Part shown: positions 11,895-21,289 of the stretch, piece by piece | How the letters are laid out: every line of letters starts with the position of its first letter | Numbering within the stretch: position 1 is the stretch's first letter | NCBI GenBank assembly: GCA_031414955.1 | Contig: JANOQV010000099.1 | Location: 1 to 27,655 of the forward strand | Source of the DNA: Pedosphaera sp. | GTDB taxonomy: Bacteria; Verrucomicrobiota; Verrucomicrobiia; Limisphaerales; SIBH01 | Length of the DNA stretch: 27,655 nt | Direction of reading: 5' to 3' | Notes under the pieces: model-generated | Told to the model about the DNA's origin: nothing | What the model saw: only the letters and a program-made list of their open reading frames with translations | The model's database searches: none | Program-made: the position numbers and the translations under genes

Positions 11895-14800
11895 ATGAAA
11901 ACCAACCCTCCATCCGCCCGTCCGGCGATGTCGCCGCCATCCCTCCCGCCCCGCTTCGCAACGCTCCTCGCCCTGGTTCTGCTCGGCGTCGCGCCGTCTT
12001 TTTTCGCCGCGCCGGCCTGGGCCGATTCGCGCTACTCGCCGCCAGTGCGCACGCCCTGGCACCCCGCGACGCGCACGGAGAGCCAGACCCACTGGCAGGC
12101 CGTGACGCTGCGCACCAACACCGCCACGGGCAAGGTCCATGCCCAGACCAACTCTTATACTGAACTCGGCGCGGGCTTGAACGTGCGCCAGGCGGATGGG
12201 CAGTTCGCGCCGGCTGATCCATCATTTCAAATCACGGCCACCGGCGCGGAGGCCACGGGCACGACGCACCAGGTCGTCGTTCCGGCGGACCTTTGGTTGG
12301 GCGAGGGCATCAAGGTCATTCAACCGGGCGGCCAGTCGGTCACATTTCAGCCGCTCGGCCTCGACTATTTTGATCCGGTGGACGGTCGCAGTGTGTTGCT
12401 GGATGCGGTGACGAATGCGGTGGGCTGGCTCACGGCTTCGAATGAAATCATCTACAGCAATTGTTTTACGCGGATCAAAGCCTCGATTCGCCTTCGCAAC
12501 ACGGCCTCGGGTGTGACTCATGATGTGCTGCTGCACGAGCGTCCGCCTGATCCGGCGAGTCTCGGACTTTCGCCCGATTCGCGGCTGGAGATGCTGACTG
12601 AGCAGGTGCAAGGCCCGGCCCCGGCGGCGCAGGCGCGGTTCATCCGGCGTGAAACCGATCCGCAACGGATCGCCAGCATGGTGGCCCCGGATTTCCTCGA
12701 CGCGGATTTGAGCTTCTCCGGGATGAAGATGGCGCGGGGCAAGGCCTTCTCCACCAGCCGGCGAACCAACGCGTTTTCCAGCCTGCCCCAGCCCGTCGGA
12801 AAGTCGGTCGAAGTAATTGATCAGAGGCGCATCATGATTGAGGCCATCGAGCATCGGCAGGCCGCGCCCGGCTTGCGGGAACTGCCGCTGGCCACCAACA
12901 CCTTGAACCAGACCACGGCGGCGCTGGATTTAGGTAGTCCCGCTCGCGCTGCGAGCGGTGTTCCCAATCCTGCGCCCAGCCTCCTGGCCTCGCAGCGCGA
13001 GGCCGGCCACCTGCCGGCCATTCGGTTGCTCCCGCCGCAGGCCGCCGCCGGTACCGCCGACAAAGCGGTGCAGCGCGCCGCCATCCAGCGCGTCAACGGT
13101 AGTCCCGCTCGCGCTTCGATCGGTGTCCCCAACTCGCCTCGCAGCGCGAGGCTCTCCACCCCGGCCGGAGCGCCGGTTGATCAGAGCCTCCTCACGTCGG
13201 CTGCTACGAAGGCCACCTTGGAGGCCGCGCCGCTCTTCGTGCTCGACTACGAACTGGTCAATGCCGGCGGCCTGACCAATTTCACCTTTCGCGGCGACAC
13301 CACTTATTTCATCAGCGGCGCCATCCCGATCTATGGTTCCAACGTGGTGGAAGGCGGGGCGGTGTTGAAGTACGATCTCGACGGCCTCTTCTTCCAAGCC
13401 GGGGCCACGCTCTTCTGCGACACCACTAACTATCTGCCCGCCGTGTTCACCTCGCTGGACGACAACTCGCTCGGCGAAATCATCGCCGGCAGCAGTGGGG
13501 AGCCTTATCGCGTGAACGCGACGGCCCTCGACTTCACCGACGGCCATCCCGAACTGCGCCACTTGCGCTTCAAGCATCTCGACTATGCGGTCTTCACGCA
13601 CGAGAACGCGACGCTCACCGCGCGCCATGTGCAGTTCGTCGATGTCATGGTGGGTCTTGCCACGACCGACAGCACCACTCTCCACGCCTTCAACGCGCTG
13701 GCCGATGGGGCCGACTGGTTTTACGCGGGCGAGATCGTGGCCTTCCGGGGCGAACACCTCACCGTCCATAACGGCACCACCGTGGGCTACGCCGCCAACA
13801 CCAATTCGACCTTGCTGCTGCGCAACAGCGTGCTGGTGGAAATGCAATACGGTCCGAACTACGCCGGCACCGTCACCTACGAGCAAGTGGTCCAGACGGA
13901 TAACGAGACCGCGCAGTTCGCCACCGTGGGCGGAGGCCAACATTATTTGTCCTCCACCAGCACCTACCGCGACCTGGGCACGAACACCATCGACGCCACC
14001 CTGGCCGCCGACCTCGCGCAGATGACTACTTACGCCCCGACGGTGCTGACCGGCACGGTGAGCAACGACCTGGTGCTTTCGCGCCAGTGGATTCGCGACA
14101 GCGCTGCGCCCGATCTGGGGTGGCACTATCCGGCGGTCGATTATCTGGCCCGCGACCTGATCTTGCAGAACTGCACCGTGACTCTGACCAATGGCGTGGT
14201 GCTGGCGGGGGCGGTGAGCAATTCCTCGGCGGCGATTTATCTCAACCCGGGCAAGTTCTTCAGCGTGGGCCTGGCCGCAAGGATGAACCACCTCCTGCGG
14301 GCCAGTCAGGTGCAGGAACACCCCCAACCTCGGGTCAGCCAAATGATCTACGACGGCCTCCAGGACCAGTTTTACCCGGAAATCCGGCTCCGCTTCACCG
14401 CGCTCTCCACGCAGGCCGGGGATTCCATCCTGGTCTTCACGGCCAACAACCTGAGCCTGCTCGAAGTCAGCCACTGCTCGATCCAGAACGGTCTCCTCCT
14501 GCACAACCTTTACGGCGGCGGCTACGGGCAGACCGTGGCCTTCACCAACAACGTGTTCCGCCGCAGCGGCCTGCGTTTCGAGGCCACCTCGCCCGCCACG
14601 GTGTACGCCTATAACAACACCTTCGCTCCGGCCGGATCGCTCTCCCTCACCGGCGGCCGGGAAGAATGGGAACTCAAGGACAACCTCTTCGATCATGTGG
14701 CTCTCACCCAGGACGCCGAGCCAATCACCAGCGATTACAACGCTTACTTCGGCATGACCAACCGCCTGGCCGCCGACACCCACTACGTGACCAACGCCAC

Positions 14801-15149
14801 CTTCACCTACACCAACGGCCCACTCGGCCGCTACTATCACCACAGCACCAGCCTGGTGGACCAGGGCAGCCGCAACTCGACCAACGCGGGACTCTACCAC
14901 TTCACCACCCGGGCCAGCCAACTCAAGGAGACCAACACCGTGGCCGACCTCGGCGCGCACTACGTGGCCACCGACGCCAACGGCACGCCGCTCGATTACG
15001 ACGGCGATGGCGTGCCGGATTACTGGGAGGATGCCAACGGCAATGGATCTCACGACTCGGCAGCGGGCGAGAATGACTGGAGAACTTACACTTCGCCGAA
15101 CGGTCTCTCCATCGGCTCCCCGCTCAGGGTCTATTCACCGCTCAAGTAA
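11895..15149 (+). CDS. Large secreted protein (1084 aa), probable beta-helix/adhesin-like, with C-terminal DxDGDG Ca-binding motif
   Basis: Signal peptide (LLALVLLGVAPSFFAAPAWA|DS), N/T-rich beta-type sequence ('FTNNVF','YNNTF','KDNLF'), a duplicated 'HY/YY...D.G...TT...DLG.HY' module, DYDGDGVPDYWED, ending in LRVYSPLK. Confidence 0.8.
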   Translation: MKTNPPSARPAMSPPSLPPRFATLLALVLLGVAPSFFAAPAWADSRYSPPVRTPWHPATRTESQTHWQAVTLRTNTATGKVHAQTNSYTELGAGLNVRQADGQFAPADPSFQITATGAEATGTTHQVVVPADLWLGEGIKVIQPGGQSVTFQPLGLDYFDPVDGRSVLLDAVTNAVGWLTASNEIIYSNCFTRIKASIRLRNTASGVTHDVLLHERPPDPASLGLSPDSRLEMLTEQVQGPAPAAQARFIRRETDPQRIASMVAPDFLDADLSFSGMKMARGKAFSTSRRTNAFSSLPQPVGKSVEVIDQRRIMIEAIEHRQAAPGLRELPLATNTLNQTTAALDLGSPARAASGVPNPAPSLLASQREAGHLPAIRLLPPQAAAGTADKAVQRAAIQRVNGSPARASIGVPNSPRSARLSTPAGAPVDQSLLTSAATKATLEAAPLFVLDYELVNAGGLTNFTFRGDTTYFISGAIPIYGSNVVEGGAVLKYDLDGLFFQAGATLFCDTTNYLPAVFTSLDDNSLGEIIAGSSGEPYRVNATALDFTDGHPELRHLRFKHLDYAVFTHENATLTARHVQFVDVMVGLATTDSTTLHAFNALADGADWFYAGEIVAFRGEHLTVHNGTTVGYAANTNSTLLLRNSVLVEMQYGPNYAGTVTYEQVVQTDNETAQFATVGGGQHYLSSTSTYRDLGTNTIDATLAADLAQMTTYAPTVLTGTVSNDLVLSRQWIRDSAAPDLGWHYPAVDYLARDLILQNCTVTLTNGVVLAGAVSNSSAAIYLNPGKFFSVGLAARMNHLLRASQVQEHPQPRVSQMIYDGLQDQFYPEIRLRFTALSTQAGDSILVFTANNLSLLEVSHCSIQNGLLLHNLYGGGYGQTVAFTNNVFRRSGLRFEATSPATVYAYNNTFAPAGSLSLTGGREEWELKDNLFDHVALTQDAEPITSDYNAYFGMTNRLAADTHYVTNATFTYTNGPLGRYYHHSTSLVDQGSRNSTNAGLYHFTTRASQLKETNTVADLGAHYVATDANGTPLDYDGDGVPDYWEDANGNGSHDSAAGENDWRTYTSPNGLSIGSPLRVYSPLK
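12933..13207. repeat. Three REP-like palindromic elements inside the coding sequence
   Basis: Two related GTAG-initiated units at 12933-13011 and 13098-13160 with ctcgcgctgcgag/ctcgcagcgcgag arms, plus cagagcctcctcacgtcggctgctac (13182-13207), which ends in CTAC (GTAG on the minus strand). Confidence 0.75.
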
Positions 15150-15168: not shown

Positions 15169-16167
15169 ATGAAAACGATCATCAAATCCCTTGCCTGTCT
15201 CACGGTCATCGCGTTGAACGGCCCAACGGCCATTGCTGGACCTGAATTCTTCGATATTTACGGCCATGCAACTCCGTCCTGGGCGCAGTGGGCCAGGAAA
15301 CCCATCGATGTGAGGGTTCTCTTGAAAAGCAAAGTGAAGGCAGATAACGGTTCGGCCGTGAGCGTCAAGTTCGACACGACATCCTTCGACAGCACCGGCG
15401 TCTCTTGCAACACCGAAGCTGTTTGGGGTCCAGGGATTGCGTTGCTCCAGCCTTATCGGAGCGTGACGATTTCCGTAACAGGAGCGGCGTTGAACACCAT
15501 CACCCTCGAACTGACGCCCCAGCATCTGATGAGCCTTCAGATTTCACGGGCGGGAGGATCACCTCTGCGCGACAAGGTAAAACTCTTTATCAACAACGTC
15601 GAAACCAACCAGGTCACGGGCAACAACACCAATTGCGGACCCTACTCCACCAATTGGACCGTTGAGTTGCGACCGGACAATGATCGGGACCGGGCGAGCA
15701 GCGTGCGCTCCAAGGTGGGCCGGGATGACGAACGCGACGTGGCGGACAACGCCGCCCCGGGGGATGGAACCTGGCTGGCCATCGGGCCGGGAAGGAGCCA
15801 GATCTCCAACGATATTTCCATGAAGTGGAGTGTGGGTCTCGGGCGTTTGCTCAATGGCAAGTCGGCCGGGCGAATTCACTTTATGGAGCATGGGTTGAAG
15901 GCCAACACCTACACCCCGCTGTCGCTGGTCTTTGCCCAGCCATTCCCGCTGACCAACAGCAGTGATCCCATGACGGCGCAATTGCAGGTGCTGAATAACA
16001 ACCTGATTACGAACCAGGCCGTCATACGCCAAATCAAAGCGCCGCAAGGCATCGCCGATGTGCGCTGGGACACGAATTGCCTCAACGGCTACGAGATTCA
16101 CTTTTATCCGCCGTCCGCCATTGGCAGAAAGGGGTCAGTTCCTAACTTCTACAACTTTTGCGGTTGA
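15169..16167 (+). pseudogene. Truncated N-terminus of a large secreted protein, probably RHS/YD-repeat family
   Basis: Signal peptide at ATG 15169, 19 nt after the upstream stop. 'WSVGLGRLLNGKSAGRI' and 'IRQIKAPQGIADV...YEIHFY' resemble the lead-in of PVC RHS proteins (from recall). The ORF runs into the transposon left end and stops there; no YD core is visible. Confidence 0.55.
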
Positions 16168-17202
16168 AAATCTGAAGTTGAAGCTCAGGCTCCTCACATG
16201 GCACGCAAACTCCGCATTGAATATCCGGGCGCGATCTACCACGTCATGAATCGCGGCGACCGCCGCGAGCCCATCTTCCAGGACGACTTCGACCGCCGCC
16301 GTTTCCTGGAAACCCTCGGTGAAGCCTGCGCCAAGACCGGCTGGCAGGCGCAGGCGTATTGCCTCATGGAAAACCACTTCCACCTCGTGGTCGAGACGCC
16401 GCTGCCCAATCTCGTGGCGGGCATGAAGTGATTCCTCGGCACCTACACCAGCCGGTTCAATCGGCGGCATAAATTGTTCGGCCACCTCTTCAGCGGGCGC
16501 TACAAAGCGCTGGTCGTGGACGGCAGCGGCCAAGGCTACCTGCGCACGGACTGCGACTACGTGCATCTGAATCCGGTGCGAGCCGGGCTGCTGACACCCG
16601 AACAGCCGTTGCGGGCCTATGCGTGGAGCAGCTACGGAGAATACTTGCAGCCGCCGGAGCGGCGGGCGGCGTGGCTGGCGGTGGGGCGGCTCCTGGGCGA
16701 AATGGGCATCCCGCAGGACAGCGCAGCCGGCCGCGCGCAATTTGAGCTGCGGATGGAAGACAGGCGGCGCGAGGAAGGCAATGCGGATTGGAAAGCCGTG
16801 CGGCGCGGCTGGTGCCTGGGCGAGGAGACATTCCGGCAGGAATTGCTGGCGCAGATGAGCGGGCGCGTGGGCGAACACCACTACGGACTCGAACGGGCGG
16901 AGAGCGCGGAAGAAAAAGCCGCGCGGATTGTGCGCGAGGAATTGGCGCGGGCGGGCTGGACGGAGGAAGAACTGCCTCAACGGCCCAAAGGCGATCCCGT
17001 GAAACTGGCGACGGCGGTCCGGCTGCGAGAGGAGACCACGATGACCTTCAAGTGGATCGCCGTGCGGCTGGAAATGGGGGCTTTAGCGCACTTGAATCGG
17101 CGCTTGTACGAGCAGCGCCAAGCAGAGGGGAGGACGCCAAGTTGAAGAAGTTAGGAACTGACCGCTCACGCTAATGGGTGACCCCTTTCCGACCCCTTTC
17201 TG
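16125..17202 (+). mobile_element. RAYT/Y1-transposase element bounded by inverted repeats
   Basis: 16133-16157 and 17139-17163 are a 24/25 inverted match; 16125-16136 and 17191-17202 are a 12/12 inverted match; they enclose one HUH transposase gene. Confidence 0.85.
16198..17145 (+). pseudogene. REP-associated tyrosine transposase (Y1_Tnp, HUH) with in-frame nonsense codon
   Basis: MARKLRIEYPGAIYHVMNRG, YCLMENHFHLVVETP (HUH), GHLFSGRYKA, DYVHLNPVRAG (catalytic Tyr) and a C-terminal HTH-like region; TGA at 16429-16431 in GMK*FLGTY, with both halves in the same frame. Confidence 0.9.
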
Positions 17203-17458
17203 AGCGCGACCCTCCGCAGCCCCGCACCCATTCGTGGCCCGCTGAAGCCGCCGCCATTTTTGCAGCGCGACAAATCCAAACCGCCACTCAGTCTGAACCA
17301 CGTCCATGTCATGAACCACCCTCGCCAGGGCCAGGCCGTGCTTGGTTCTTGCCCTAAACAATCGCTCCCCCAAACTTCCGCCGGTTCATGGCAAAAGAAT
17401 TGAAAACCCGATTGAGTCTATCGTCGCCCTCGCCCGGCCTGATGCAGGCGGCGCGCGG

Positions 17459-20400
17459 ATGAAACTCAATCTCTACACCCGGCTGTATCTCTGGCTCGTG
17501 GCGCACCGGCGCGGCGTGCTGACGGCGACGGCCCTGCTCATGGCGGGAGCGGCCTGGATGTCCTCGCGCATTGATCTCCAGGAGGACGTGCTCGACATGC
17601 TGCCGCGCCACGACGCGCAAGTGGACGAGTACCGTTACACCCTGCGCAAGTTCCGCCAAATCGACCGCGCCTATCTCGACGTAGGCGTGAATCGCGATGA
17701 TCCCGAAACGCTGGCCCGCGCCGCCGATGAAGTCTTCGCGCGCCTGTCCACAAACGAGAGCCTTCAACGCATCACCTATCGCATTGAGGTGGGCGGCACA
17801 GGCAAGGCCATAGAGTTGCTGACCACCGCGCTGCCGAATTTATTTTCCGAGGCCGACGCGCGCGAACTGGAGAAGAAGATCACGCCCGCCGAGGTGCGCG
17901 ACAACCTGACCGACATGCGCCGCAAGCTGGCCGGGCCGGAGGGCATGGTGTTGAAGGACGTGGTGGCCGCCGACCCGATCGGCATGACCGCGCTGGTCGC
18001 GGCCAAGGCGTTGCCGCTCCAGGCCGGTTTCGGCGGCGAACAGATCGTCGATGGCCGCATCACCAGCGCCGACGGCCGGCATGTGCTGATGCTGATCGAG
18101 CCGAAGTTCGGCTCGTCCGACGCCAAGGCCAGCGCGGTGCTGGTGCCTGATCTGTTGCGCGTCGTGGGGGAGGTGGAGAAACAATTTCCCGGCGTCCATG
18201 TCGCGATCACCGGCGGGCACCGGATGGCGGTGGACAATTCCACCATGATCCGCACCGACGCCACGCGGTGCATCTCCATCGGCTCGGCGGGGATGCTGGT
18301 GCTCTGCTGGGTGGCTTACCGCCGACGCTGGCTGGCGGTGCTTTCTTTTTTGCCGTCGCTCTTTGGCACGCTCATGGCCGGCGTGGTGCTGTCCTTGTGG
18401 CAGAACCAGCTCTCGGCCATCGCCACGGGCTTCGCCTCCATCGCCGTCGGCATCACGGTCGATTACGCCATTCACGTCATTTACCACCTCGACAACGCGG
18501 GCGGCTCGGACCATCGCGCCATTGGGCAGCACCTCAGCCGCCTGGTCTTTCCCATCGGCATCGGCGTCATCACGACCATCGCGGCCTTTCTTGTCATGCT
18601 CACTTCGCCCATGCACGGGTATCAACAGCTCGGCATTCTGGGCGCCATCGGCGTGGTCTTCTCGGCGTCCTTCGCGCTGCTGGTGCTGCCCCTGCTCGTG
18701 CCGGTGGCGAAGAAATCCGGCCAGCCGCCGCTCTGGCTGACGCGCTGGTGGGAAAGATATTTCCAGTGGGAAAAACGCCGCCGCCTCTGGCTGCTCCTGG
18801 GCGTGGTGGTGCTGACGGTGGTGACCGCGTTCGGGATCAAACGACTCCGCTTCGAAGGTGATGTGTCGAAGCTCAACGGCATCACCGACTCGACCCGGCG
18901 CGATGACGCGCTCATCCAGAAGTCTTGGGGTCACGCCCTCGGCTTCACCATGGTCGTGGCCCGGGGCGACACGCCGGACGCGGCCCTCGCACAGAACGAC
19001 CTCGTGGCCGCGAAACTGGCCGGGGAACCAAACGTGGCCGCGACCTACTCGCTCGCCTCCGTCTGTCCATCGTCCGAAACACAGCGCGCCAGTCTGAAAC
19101 GCTGGCGCGAATTCTGGACGGCGGAGCGGCGCGCGTCGTTGCGTGAGTCGCTGGACAAATCCGCCGCCGAACTGGGCTATCGCGCCGGCGCCTTCGCGAA
19201 ATTCTGGAACCTCATCGAGGGCGAACCCGCGCTGCTCACCCTCGATTCCTTTCGCGGCACCCCGTTTGAAAACGCCCTGGCCGAGCGCGTCGCTTCCGGC
19301 CCGGACGGCACGGCCATCAGCACGCTGGTGAAACTCAAGAACCGCGCGGAGGCGGCCCAACTGCGGACGACCCTGCCCGGCACCATCGTCCTCGACAGCC
19401 AGGGGCTGGCCACGCACATCGCCGGCCTGGCCAAGAGCGGACTGAAGGATTTTGCTTTCTGGACCGGCCTGTTCGTAGTCGGCCTGCTGTGCGTCAGCCT
19501 CGTCTCGGTGGAACTGGTGCTCATGACCATGGTGCCGCTGGCTTTTGGTTTGTTGTGGACCTTCGGATTGATGGGTTGGCTCGGGCTGCCCATCGACTTG
19601 ATGAACAGCATCTTCGTCATCTTCGTCATCGGCGTGGGCGAGGATTACGCGGTCTTCCTCGTGACGAGCAAGCTGGAGGAATGGCGCGGGCGGCCCGGCC
19701 ACACCGCCGTGAACAGCGCGTCAGTGCTGGTCTCGGCGCTGACCACGATCTTCGGCTTCGGCGTCATGGTGCTGGCCCAGCATCCGGTGCTCTTCTCGAT
19801 GGGCACGACGGTGCTGATCGGCATGGCCTTCGCCTTCCTCGCCACCCTGGTCCTCACCCCGCTGGGCATGAATCTGTTGCTCTTCAAAGACCCGCCACGC
19901 GGTGCGCCGAAATGGTGGCACCTGCTGGGCACACTCTGGGCCGGGCTGCACCTCGCCAGCGGCGAAGTCTTTCTCTACTGCGTGCTGCGACCGGCGCTCA
20001 AAGTCTTCACTCCGCGCACCGCCGACGACACCTTGCGCCGCGCCACCCGCTGGATGGCGCGCGGTCTGATCAAGGGATTGCCTTTCGGCAGATTGGAATA
20101 TCAGAACATCTCCGAGGAGACGTTCCGCAAACCTTCCATTGTGATCAGCAACCATCAATCCGCCGTGGACGTGATGCTGGTGGTGGGCCTGCCCGGCGAC
20201 ATCCGGCAGACGGCCAAGAAGCGCGTCTTCGACAACCCGATGCTCGGCCTTGGCTGCAAGCTGCTCGGCCATGTCATGGTGGAACCAAACGATCCCGAGA
20301 CCACGCTGCGCCGCTGCCGCGAGCGGCTGGCCTCGGGCGCGTCGGTGCATTTTTACCCCGAAGGCACGCGCTCGAAGGACGGCTTCGTGCAGCGCTTCCA

Positions 20401-21289
20401 TCGCGGTGCCTTCGAGTTGGCGGTGGAACTCAAGCAAGACATCCTGCCCGTCGTGCTCTGCGACACCGCCACCGCCATGCCGCGCGACGCCTACTGGTTC
20501 GAGCGCTACCACGCCACGGTCCGGGCGCTGCCCCGCATCACGCCCGCGACGTTTGATTACTCGCTCGGCAGCACCGCGTTGATGAAGCACTGCGAGGCCG
20601 TGGTGCGCGAGGGATTGCAACGCCAACTCGACGAGGTGAACACGCCGCGCGTGTTGCGCCGCAAAGTGGCGCGGCTCTATCGCTACCAGGGAGTTTACGT
20701 CGAGCAGTTCGTTCACTGGAAGATGAAGCTCGATCCGGTCTTCACCGCGCTGGAGCAGGCCGTGCCCCGGCACGGCTTCGTGCTCGATCTGGGCTGCGGC
20801 TACGGATTGGCCACGCACTGGCTGGCGCAGGGCACCGACCAGCGCACGTTCCTCGGCGTGGACTACGACGAAGATAAAATCCGCGTCGCGAAGCGCTCCG
20901 CACCGGGCCATGAACGCGTGAGCTTCGAACTGCGCGACATCCTCGAATGGGAATATCCGCCCTGCGACACCGTGCTGCTGTTCGACGTGCTGCACTACTG
21001 GACGCCCGACAAGCAGCAGTTGATCCTCGAGAAAATTCACCGTGCCCTGCGCCCCGGTGGACGGCTGGTCCTGCGCGATGCGGCGCGCGCGGAAGACGCC
21101 GCGCACGGACGCGTCGAATGGTGGGAGAAGTTCGCCACGCGCTTCGGCATGAACAAGACGAAGGAGGGCCTGCACTTCCGCACGCTGGCCGAGACCGAAG
21201 CGGCGCTGAAGCTCGCCGGCTTCGCGCGCTGGGAGATCAAGCGCGGGGCAGGACGGGACTCAAATGTTCTGCTCGTGGCGACGGCCTGA
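17459..21289 (+). CDS. Trifunctional MMPL/RND-like transporter - PlsC-type acyltransferase - class I SAM methyltransferase
   Basis: Two MMPL halves (GITVDYAIH; GVGEDYAVF), NHQSAVD and YPEGTRS acyltransferase motifs, and VLDLGCGYG ... LRPGGRLVL. ATG 17459 is preferred. Confidence 0.9.
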   Translation: MKLNLYTRLYLWLVAHRRGVLTATALLMAGAAWMSSRIDLQEDVLDMLPRHDAQVDEYRYTLRKFRQIDRAYLDVGVNRDDPETLARAADEVFARLSTNESLQRITYRIEVGGTGKAIELLTTALPNLFSEADARELEKKITPAEVRDNLTDMRRKLAGPEGMVLKDVVAADPIGMTALVAAKALPLQAGFGGEQIVDGRITSADGRHVLMLIEPKFGSSDAKASAVLVPDLLRVVGEVEKQFPGVHVAITGGHRMAVDNSTMIRTDATRCISIGSAGMLVLCWVAYRRRWLAVLSFLPSLFGTLMAGVVLSLWQNQLSAIATGFASIAVGITVDYAIHVIYHLDNAGGSDHRAIGQHLSRLVFPIGIGVITTIAAFLVMLTSPMHGYQQLGILGAIGVVFSASFALLVLPLLVPVAKKSGQPPLWLTRWWERYFQWEKRRRLWLLLGVVVLTVVTAFGIKRLRFEGDVSKLNGITDSTRRDDALIQKSWGHALGFTMVVARGDTPDAALAQNDLVAAKLAGEPNVAATYSLASVCPSSETQRASLKRWREFWTAERRASLRESLDKSAAELGYRAGAFAKFWNLIEGEPALLTLDSFRGTPFENALAERVASGPDGTAISTLVKLKNRAEAAQLRTTLPGTIVLDSQGLATHIAGLAKSGLKDFAFWTGLFVVGLLCVSLVSVELVLMTMVPLAFGLLWTFGLMGWLGLPIDLMNSIFVIFVIGVGEDYAVFLVTSKLEEWRGRPGHTAVNSASVLVSALTTIFGFGVMVLAQHPVLFSMGTTVLIGMAFAFLATLVLTPLGMNLLLFKDPPRGAPKWWHLLGTLWAGLHLASGEVFLYCVLRPALKVFTPRTADDTLRRATRWMARGLIKGLPFGRLEYQNISEETFRKPSIVISNHQSAVDVMLVVGLPGDIRQTAKKRVFDNPMLGLGCKLLGHVMVEPNDPETTLRRCRERLASGASVHFYPEGTRSKDGFVQRFHRGAFELAVELKQDILPVVLCDTATAMPRDAYWFERYHATVRALPRITPATFDYSLGSTALMKHCEAVVREGLQRQLDEVNTPRVLRRKVARLYRYQGVYVEQFVHWKMKLDPVFTALEQAVPRHGFVLDLGCGYGLATHWLAQGTDQRTFLGVDYDEDKIRVAKRSAPGHERVSFELRDILEWEYPPCDTVLLFDVLHYWTPDKQQLILEKIHRALRPGGRLVLRDAARAEDAAHGRVEWWEKFATRFGMNKTKEGLHFRTLAETEAALKLAGFARWEIKRGAGRDSNVLLVATA

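Follow-up and report, generated by a model that had tools for sequence, protein, structure and literature searches.

A stretch of DNA from a Pedosphaera sp. genome (27,655 nt, hereafter the window) contains a broken Y1/HUH transposase gene enclosed by inverted repeats, and the left repeat lies where a gene for a large Rhs protein is cut off. The right repeat is itself split by two short extra pieces of DNA. An earlier reading of the locus, made from the sequence alone, took these pieces for captured fragments and the whole for an undescribed system, possibly one that shuffles RHS/toxin loci. The locus thus raises the question of which family the element belongs to, where the two pieces came from, and what happened to the Rhs gene.

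The window element and its family

When positions 17164-17194 are omitted, the right end (17139-17202) forms with the left end an inverted repeat of 33 nt with one mismatch, as the sequence-only reading had described. The unsplit 28-nt arm scored 22, and 150 pairs drawn at random from the genome with identical geometry reached at most 14. Because of a TGACC overlap, the extra DNA is better written as a 20-nt unit followed by a doubled 11-nt unit (Table 1).

Table 1. Features around the element in the window.
Feature	Position	Strand	Remarks
Gene of ~1080 aa	11895..15149	+	Of the kind preceding this Rhs subfamily in 4/5 intact loci; outside the element
Rhs protein, N-terminal sixth	15169..16167	+	Breaks off at the element's left end; homology to about 16130
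Left terminal inverted repeat	16125..16157	+	Motif GGGGTCAG at 16131-16138, fits GGGGWSAS
TIRYT (Y1/HUH, RAYT-like) transposase pseudogene	16198..17145	+	315 codons; TGA at 16429-16431
Right inverted repeat, inner arm	17139..17160	+	Ends at the TG core, the putative IS1111-type insertion point
Putative IS1111-type IS110 right-end stub	17159..17178	+	20 nt; subterminal repeat at 17164-17176
Right repeat, outer tip	17179..17200	+	11-nt unit in tandem x2, one T/C difference

The transposase frame opens with an ATG and is interrupted by a single internal TGA, at a position where 77 of 79 homologues have a Trp. It matches Pfam Y1_Tnp and retains the HUH motif (HFH) and the catalytic Tyr. The same genome has two intact TIRYT paralogues (one of them at C161:3181-4116), each 64% identical to the window gene, together with two short TIRYT fragments and several solo ends. 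A TGG at 16431 in runs X3/X4 may derive from paralogues. A promoter scan of the left end of the element gave no sites; TTGAC was seen by eye within the left repeat of most homologues.

Homologous loci (n = 79) were collected, and 78 were scored for inverted repeats, one being left out for its short flank. The expectation that homologues would share the repeat was borne out: a gene-flanking inverted repeat was present in 65 of the 78 and in none after shuffling. The motif GGGGTCAG lies in the core conserved among the homologues. The inner arm varies between elements, yet it agrees between both ends of one element, and in 62 elements with both ends anchored this covariation spanned -13 to about +6 nt from the T of TGACC, fading by ~+11 nt. 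The named homologues came mostly from Verrucomicrobiota MAGs.

That HUH enzymes lack terminal inverted repeats, from which an undescribed system had been deduced, does not hold for this group. RAYT-like genes between long terminal inverted repeats were named TIRYT/TIRtron in 2013 by Di Nocera et al., with GGGGWSAS as the published TIR motif (PMC3733652). TIRYT was later equated with TnpA-Y1 subclass 2.1 by Quentin et al. in 2018, who placed 20 of 26 examples there and marked the subclass by a C-terminal HTH of the Bac_DnaA_C, HTH_23 or HTH_28 type (PMC6006769); it contains RAYT Group 1 of Bertels et al. 2017 (PMC5581495). The window element has the RAYT-like Y1 gene, the long terminal inverted repeats, the GGGGWSAS motif, the long C-terminal extension and the solo TIRs elsewhere in the genome. 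It is very probably a decayed TIRtron, a grade that holds jointly for this identity and for the identities given below for the two extra pieces.

The family also probably belongs to subclass 2.1, although the published mark was not confirmed in its C-terminal domain: a Pfam scan of nine C-termini (E<=1) found no Bac_DnaA_C, HTH_23 or HTH_28 and gave one weak HTH_31 match. Pfam Y1_Tnp was matched by 72 of 73 aligned family members, and the NF047646 match scored under its cut-off. A fold of an intact paralogue predicted from an alignment (pLDDT 85.8; from the single sequence it was poor, pLDDT 41) was nearest to the E. coli RAYT 4ER8, followed by IS200/IS605 TnpA, and includes a helical C-terminal domain. 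A PDB sequence search with the transposase gave no match.

The HUH/Y1 fold and the lack of target duplication are shared with RAYT/TnpA-REP (4ER8) and with IS200/IS605 TnpA (IS608, ISDra2). In 61 elements no offset or length of a target-site duplication stood convincingly above permutations, so that the family also differs from classical IS with their direct repeat of target DNA. Unlike RAYT and IS200/IS605 TnpA, the TIRYT protein is about twice as long, the ends of the element are one sequence inverted, and no REP hairpin or GTAG guide is present. GTAG-tagged REP hairpins, which flank the gene in a REPtron, were not found at the element ends, where the long-range inverted pair was the only notable repeat.

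Origin of the two extra pieces

A source for the 20-nt piece could be traced. Five copies are present in this genome, three of which follow the same type of TIR, and among the 401 genomes searched from the order 35 have a match, compared with one match for the control; matches to the G-variant were mostly chance ones in coding DNA. Upstream tracing led to a complete IS110-family element (locus L182) inserted in the repeat on the left side of a TIRYT gene. Over 17159-17188, which covers the 20-nt unit, the window is letter-for-letter identical to the end of the complete IS in L182/L204. The L182 recombinase (DEDD, IS110) scored above the cut-offs of PF01548, PF02371 and NF033542; its gene is absent from the window and, despite the five stub copies, was not matched in this genome at E<=1e-80.

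The IS of L182 has subterminal inverted repeats with outer extensions of 6-7 bp on the left and about 3 bp on the right, and a non-coding region of ~520 nt lies downstream of its gene. Such repeats, extensions of 6-7 bp and 3 bp and a long downstream non-coding region are features of the IS1111 group (PMC11187229, PMC11208160). Its left junctions resembled TIRYT arms in 23 of 30 distinct cases, compared with 2% of random sites. By these comparisons the 20-nt piece very probably comes from the right terminus of an IS110 element of the IS1111 type with TIRtron repeats as its target. Capture of foreign DNA was rejected on the copy number in the genome, the matches in the other genomes and the origin in an IS end. 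Two other candidates, a second TIRtron repeat and the end of an integrative element, were dropped once the complete IS110 element had been found in L182.

The IS1111-type element is predicted to be RNA-guided. A predicted guide loop lies just 3' of the stop codon and holds first the sequence complementary to the right half of the target and then the left target half. This order, in which the top-strand guide precedes the bottom-strand guide, is that of the seekRNA/bridge-RNA elements of the IS1111 group (PMC11187229, PMC11208160). Ten distinct predicted guides were compared with their own left targets and agreed at 71 of 80 positions; the permuted mean was 52, and none of 20000 permutations came to 71. 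The count was made after nine of 21 loci that could not be parsed were left out and among elements that are related and not independent. An Rfam scan of six IS-end loci returned nothing meaningful.

Some further observations concern the non-coding region of the IS. It holds another conserved loop, which agrees with the right end of the IS and covaries with it (L218, L219). The last two bases of this loop follow the first two of the target (L215), as if the inserted junction were being read (L182/L204-L224). A miniature derivative of the IS1111 type was also seen at L147:2670-2790, where the left and right ends lie ~100 nt apart with no gene between them.

TIRtrons were already known, and so were IS1111 elements aimed at the repeats of other elements; what is new here is the pairing of a TIRtron host with an IS1111-type parasite. 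The repeat of another element is likewise the target of IS4321/IS5075, which reportedly target the TIRs of Tn21, and of ISPpu9. The latter targets REPs (PMC12288879). Unlike these and the IS1111 group at large, the present element has the TIRtron end as its target and survives mostly as stubs anchored at the right end, only 20 nt of it being retained in the window. Searches of open-access full text yielded no paper on an IS1111 element aimed at the ends of TIRtrons, on stutters at such ends or on a connection between TIRYT and Rhs; related TIRs may be shown in PMC3733652, in its figure 9 and its supplementary TIRYT alignment. The clade adds naturally reprogrammed pairs of predicted guides and targets directed at the ends of another element.

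The 11-nt piece is best read as a tandem copy of the TIRtron's own tip, a stutter, so that neither piece looks like captured DNA. GACC-bounded extras nevertheless proved to be real and recurrent in the family. Of the 62 elements, 19 had extra end copies no more than 60 nt away (by eye, L066 and L069 among them look like miscalls), compared with 2 of 60 in each of two sets of control windows. The proposal that joining took place repeatedly at (T)GACC is upheld. A tandem unit was found at 37 of 263 distinct ends, and the commonest length was 11 nt (10 of 37, the window being one of the ten). Stutters also occurred at ends without IS sequence. Their outer breakpoints vary from about +3 to +11 nt and indicate no single nick site; a fixed RAYT-like C|T cut agreed with the window unit and not with several other units.

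Could the composite right end be an assembly chimera formed through the repeated 30-mer? The contigs of both possible source runs do break at 17159-17188, and none of the contigs listed for the two runs bridges these positions, so that the join in the window is plausible, not proven. The glycosyltransferase gene that usually neighbours the downstream MMPL gene lies on another contig (below). Against a chimera, the depth on either side is similar (10.4/10.4 and 13.4/15.3), the join of TIR and stub lies within one contig in each run, and in a second study a relative has this downstream flank too, starting from the stub. The junction of TIR and 20-nt unit recurs at two other places in the genome and in other genomes, which means that this structure itself is real. 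A chimera is in our judgement highly improbable. In runs X3/X4 a contig from a relative that spans 17159-17515 includes 11 gap letters, which equals the stutter in size; the location of the gap is not shown and it was not counted.

Flanking genes and the Rhs neighbourhood

The RHS-like nature of the upstream gene and its break at the element were confirmed. The ORF at 15169 encodes the N-terminal ~317 aa of an Rhs protein whose homologues have frames of 2009-2072 aa, and one homologue, scanned in full, matched TIGR03696. The missing 3' part did not turn up, the genome search for the continuation (aa ~330-780) being negative. On contig C300 (30102-34896) an Rhs gene of this subfamily lacks its 5' part; it starts near aa 790, sits directly behind an IS5-type transposase gene and was rejected as the missing piece.

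The gene at 11895-15149 has no Pfam match and ends in a D-x-D-G-D-G repeat; three further paralogues of it in the genome precede or are fused to other large proteins. Downstream, 17342-21289 encodes an MMPL exporter-acyltransferase-methyltransferase fusion. In relatives of the genus a glycosyltransferase gene precedes this MMPL gene, whereas here it is found on contig C184, which suggests that the element marks a rearranged junction or else a mis-join.

Loss or rearrangement of the flank, as had been proposed, is seen across the family. A gene was cut at one end of the element in 11 of 62 loci, a survey in which 30 of the 62 gave no informative flank match, and in none of the 11 did the gene resume across the element. 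Judged by eye from best match or translation, seven of the 11 cut genes were not Rhs.

Is the element then a dedicated shuffler of Rhs and toxin genes, acting at the GACC of Asp-Pro codons? Among the 79 homologous loci, nine (~10%) had Rhs sequence in a flank, all nine on the strand of the transposase, as were all three Rhs neighbours of a genome-wide check, and several TIRYT ends cut directly into Rhs genes. Among 33 full TIRYT copies in 13 genomes, three lay <=8 kb from an Rhs core, and about 0.4 were expected from genome averages. Just 5' of both intact paralogues in the genome there are toxin-like and immunity-like genes (L001:56-2170 and L002:194-2415, by eye); neither kind had a match in Pfam or NCBIfam. 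The enrichment expected next to RHS genes held in the unmatched comparison (9 of 79 vs 1 of 64, p=0.02) and not in the matched control of ten genomes, in which Rhs lay near 3 of 30 TIRYT and 1 of 64 DDE transposases (Fisher p=0.09), the rve family having been searched in five of the ten.

The other results speak against such a shuffler: 70 of the 79 loci had no Rhs, most of the cut genes were of other kinds, no TIRYT lay within 16 kb of any of five intact homologues of the window Rhs, and by eye the readable junctions inside Rhs genes shared no common Asp-Pro position. We consider a dedicated shuffler very unlikely. The counts hint at an enrichment of TIRYT near Rhs genes, with about nine in ten elements located elsewhere.

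IS remnants and a possible one-ended activity

The IS persists mainly as stubs in which the right end is fixed and the start is variable, and these are often stacked on TIRtron ends. Among the matches listed, 161 distinct IS right ends comprised 18 full elements, 41 at a contig edge and 102 5'-truncated stubs (49 of <=30 nt and 53 longer). Within this set a TIR arm lay directly to the left of 26 of the 102 stubs (15 of 49 short, 11 of 53 long; null 0 of 400), and at the strict threshold used the remaining 76 had no recognisable arm beside them. Six of the 53 long stubs listed start just past a complete TIR core (null 0.9%), a position that simple in-place deletion would not give. The metagenome scan gave at least 119 stretches, 80 of which were used, and its pattern required YGAC after the IS end and so biased the right flank. 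The sampled genomes are related MAGs, and the counts are therefore not independent.

Left-end stubs are fewer. In the same 401 genomes ~40 right-end stubs (counted by eye) compare with seven left-end stubs, about five-fold, although the two patterns were searched at different stringency and the polarity is not absolute. The 20 matches of the left-end search consisted of two chance matches, ten with the gene, one at an edge and the seven stubs. Taken together, the stub pattern suggests that each end acts alone and joins neighbouring DNA without target duplication.

Three explanations may be considered. The one we favour by a modest degree is that TIRYT handles each TGACCCC end singly and on one strand, a reaction that would account alike for the stutters, the stubs of the IS and the truncated flanks, with no duplication of target DNA. 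It builds on the family identity, the origin of both extras, the target site of the IS, the covariation of guide and target and the absence of target duplication, all as read from sequence. In this scheme the IS would insert into the TIR at AAC-TG-ACCCC, and TIRYT (the window gene before its breakage, or a paralogue) would nick about 3-4 nt outside TGACCCC. The freed 3' end would then be joined, aided by short homology, to DNA at a variable distance upstream of another TGACCCC. Joining inside the same end would produce stutters of 11-49 nt; joining into the IS would produce right-end-anchored stubs, with the internal TGACC of the IS (the 20-nt unit) as a hot spot; joining into a neighbouring gene would delete or swap the flank, as with Rhs here. 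The 20-nt and 11-nt extras are likely the scars of such repeated cutting and rejoining at the right end, not of foreign capture.

The chemistry of this scheme is inferred from relatives. For RAYT, HUH 3'-OH strand transfer at a variable distance from the repeat has been shown (PMC8266576), and one-ended cleavage and strand transfer of ssDNA, shared with RAYT and IS200/IS605, would be plausible for TIRYT. The papers searched gave no account of an active TIRYT.

According to the second explanation, the stubs are made by the IS1111-type recombinase, which would attach just the right end of the IS to a new target TIR by direct transfer of one strand. The remainder would be trimmed off by repair at the internal TGACC, and TIRYT would be a passive landing site. 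Direct transfer of the top strand only has been reported for single IS110 junctions (10.1101/2025.10.25.684509), and modular circles for ISPpu9 (PMC12288879). The short stubs are located exactly at the guide-specified site, and even a full IS (L303) has its 20-nt unit tandemly doubled. This explanation does not account for stutters without IS sequence, stubs behind a complete TIR core or cut flanking genes, and we hold it to be unlikely.

The third is ordinary decay, in which a full IS was inserted, host replication or repair deleted the DNA between TG(ACC) direct repeats, and the 11-nt doubling arose by polymerase slippage at paired inverted repeats. The stub junctions share 2-6 nt of sequence, the left-end stubs L383 and L387 stop at an internal GACC fused to the right half of the target, as microhomology deletion predicts, and the window transposase is itself broken. 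The excess of right-end over left-end stubs, the stubs that follow a complete TIR end and the presence of up to 12 right-end matches in one genome all argue against decay, which we hold to be slightly less likely still. The window junction alone, with its TG/TGACC overlap, fits plain deletion or partial transfer by the IS equally well.

Returning to one-ended handling by TIRYT, stuttered ends, an IS parasitic on the TIR and flank deletions set the window family apart from the TIRtron description in the available text of PMC3733652 and PMC6006769. TIRtrons are widespread (a match in 32 of 41 genomes searched), yet the 2013 paper left their mechanism open (PMC3733652), and a later test was not found in open-access full text. 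The IS stubs and stutters predict a cut just outside TGACCCC, with the ends acting singly, and in this way make the mechanism directly testable with short oligonucleotides. It is also possible, if doubtful, that every TGACCCC end is a lone one-ended, rolling-circle-like origin that copies inner DNA of variable length to other ends and nearby genes. If so, the IS1111 parasite would be a natural tracer of this activity, and the same activity would truncate and re-fuse Rhs and other genes.

A nested arrangement was also observed in the genome. On contig C161 an intact TIRYT with another inner arm lies in the first codons of a second TIRtron. The host TIRtron has the TIR type of the window, with the TIR doubled, and its right tip carries two 11-nt stutters (locus L001:2990-4200).
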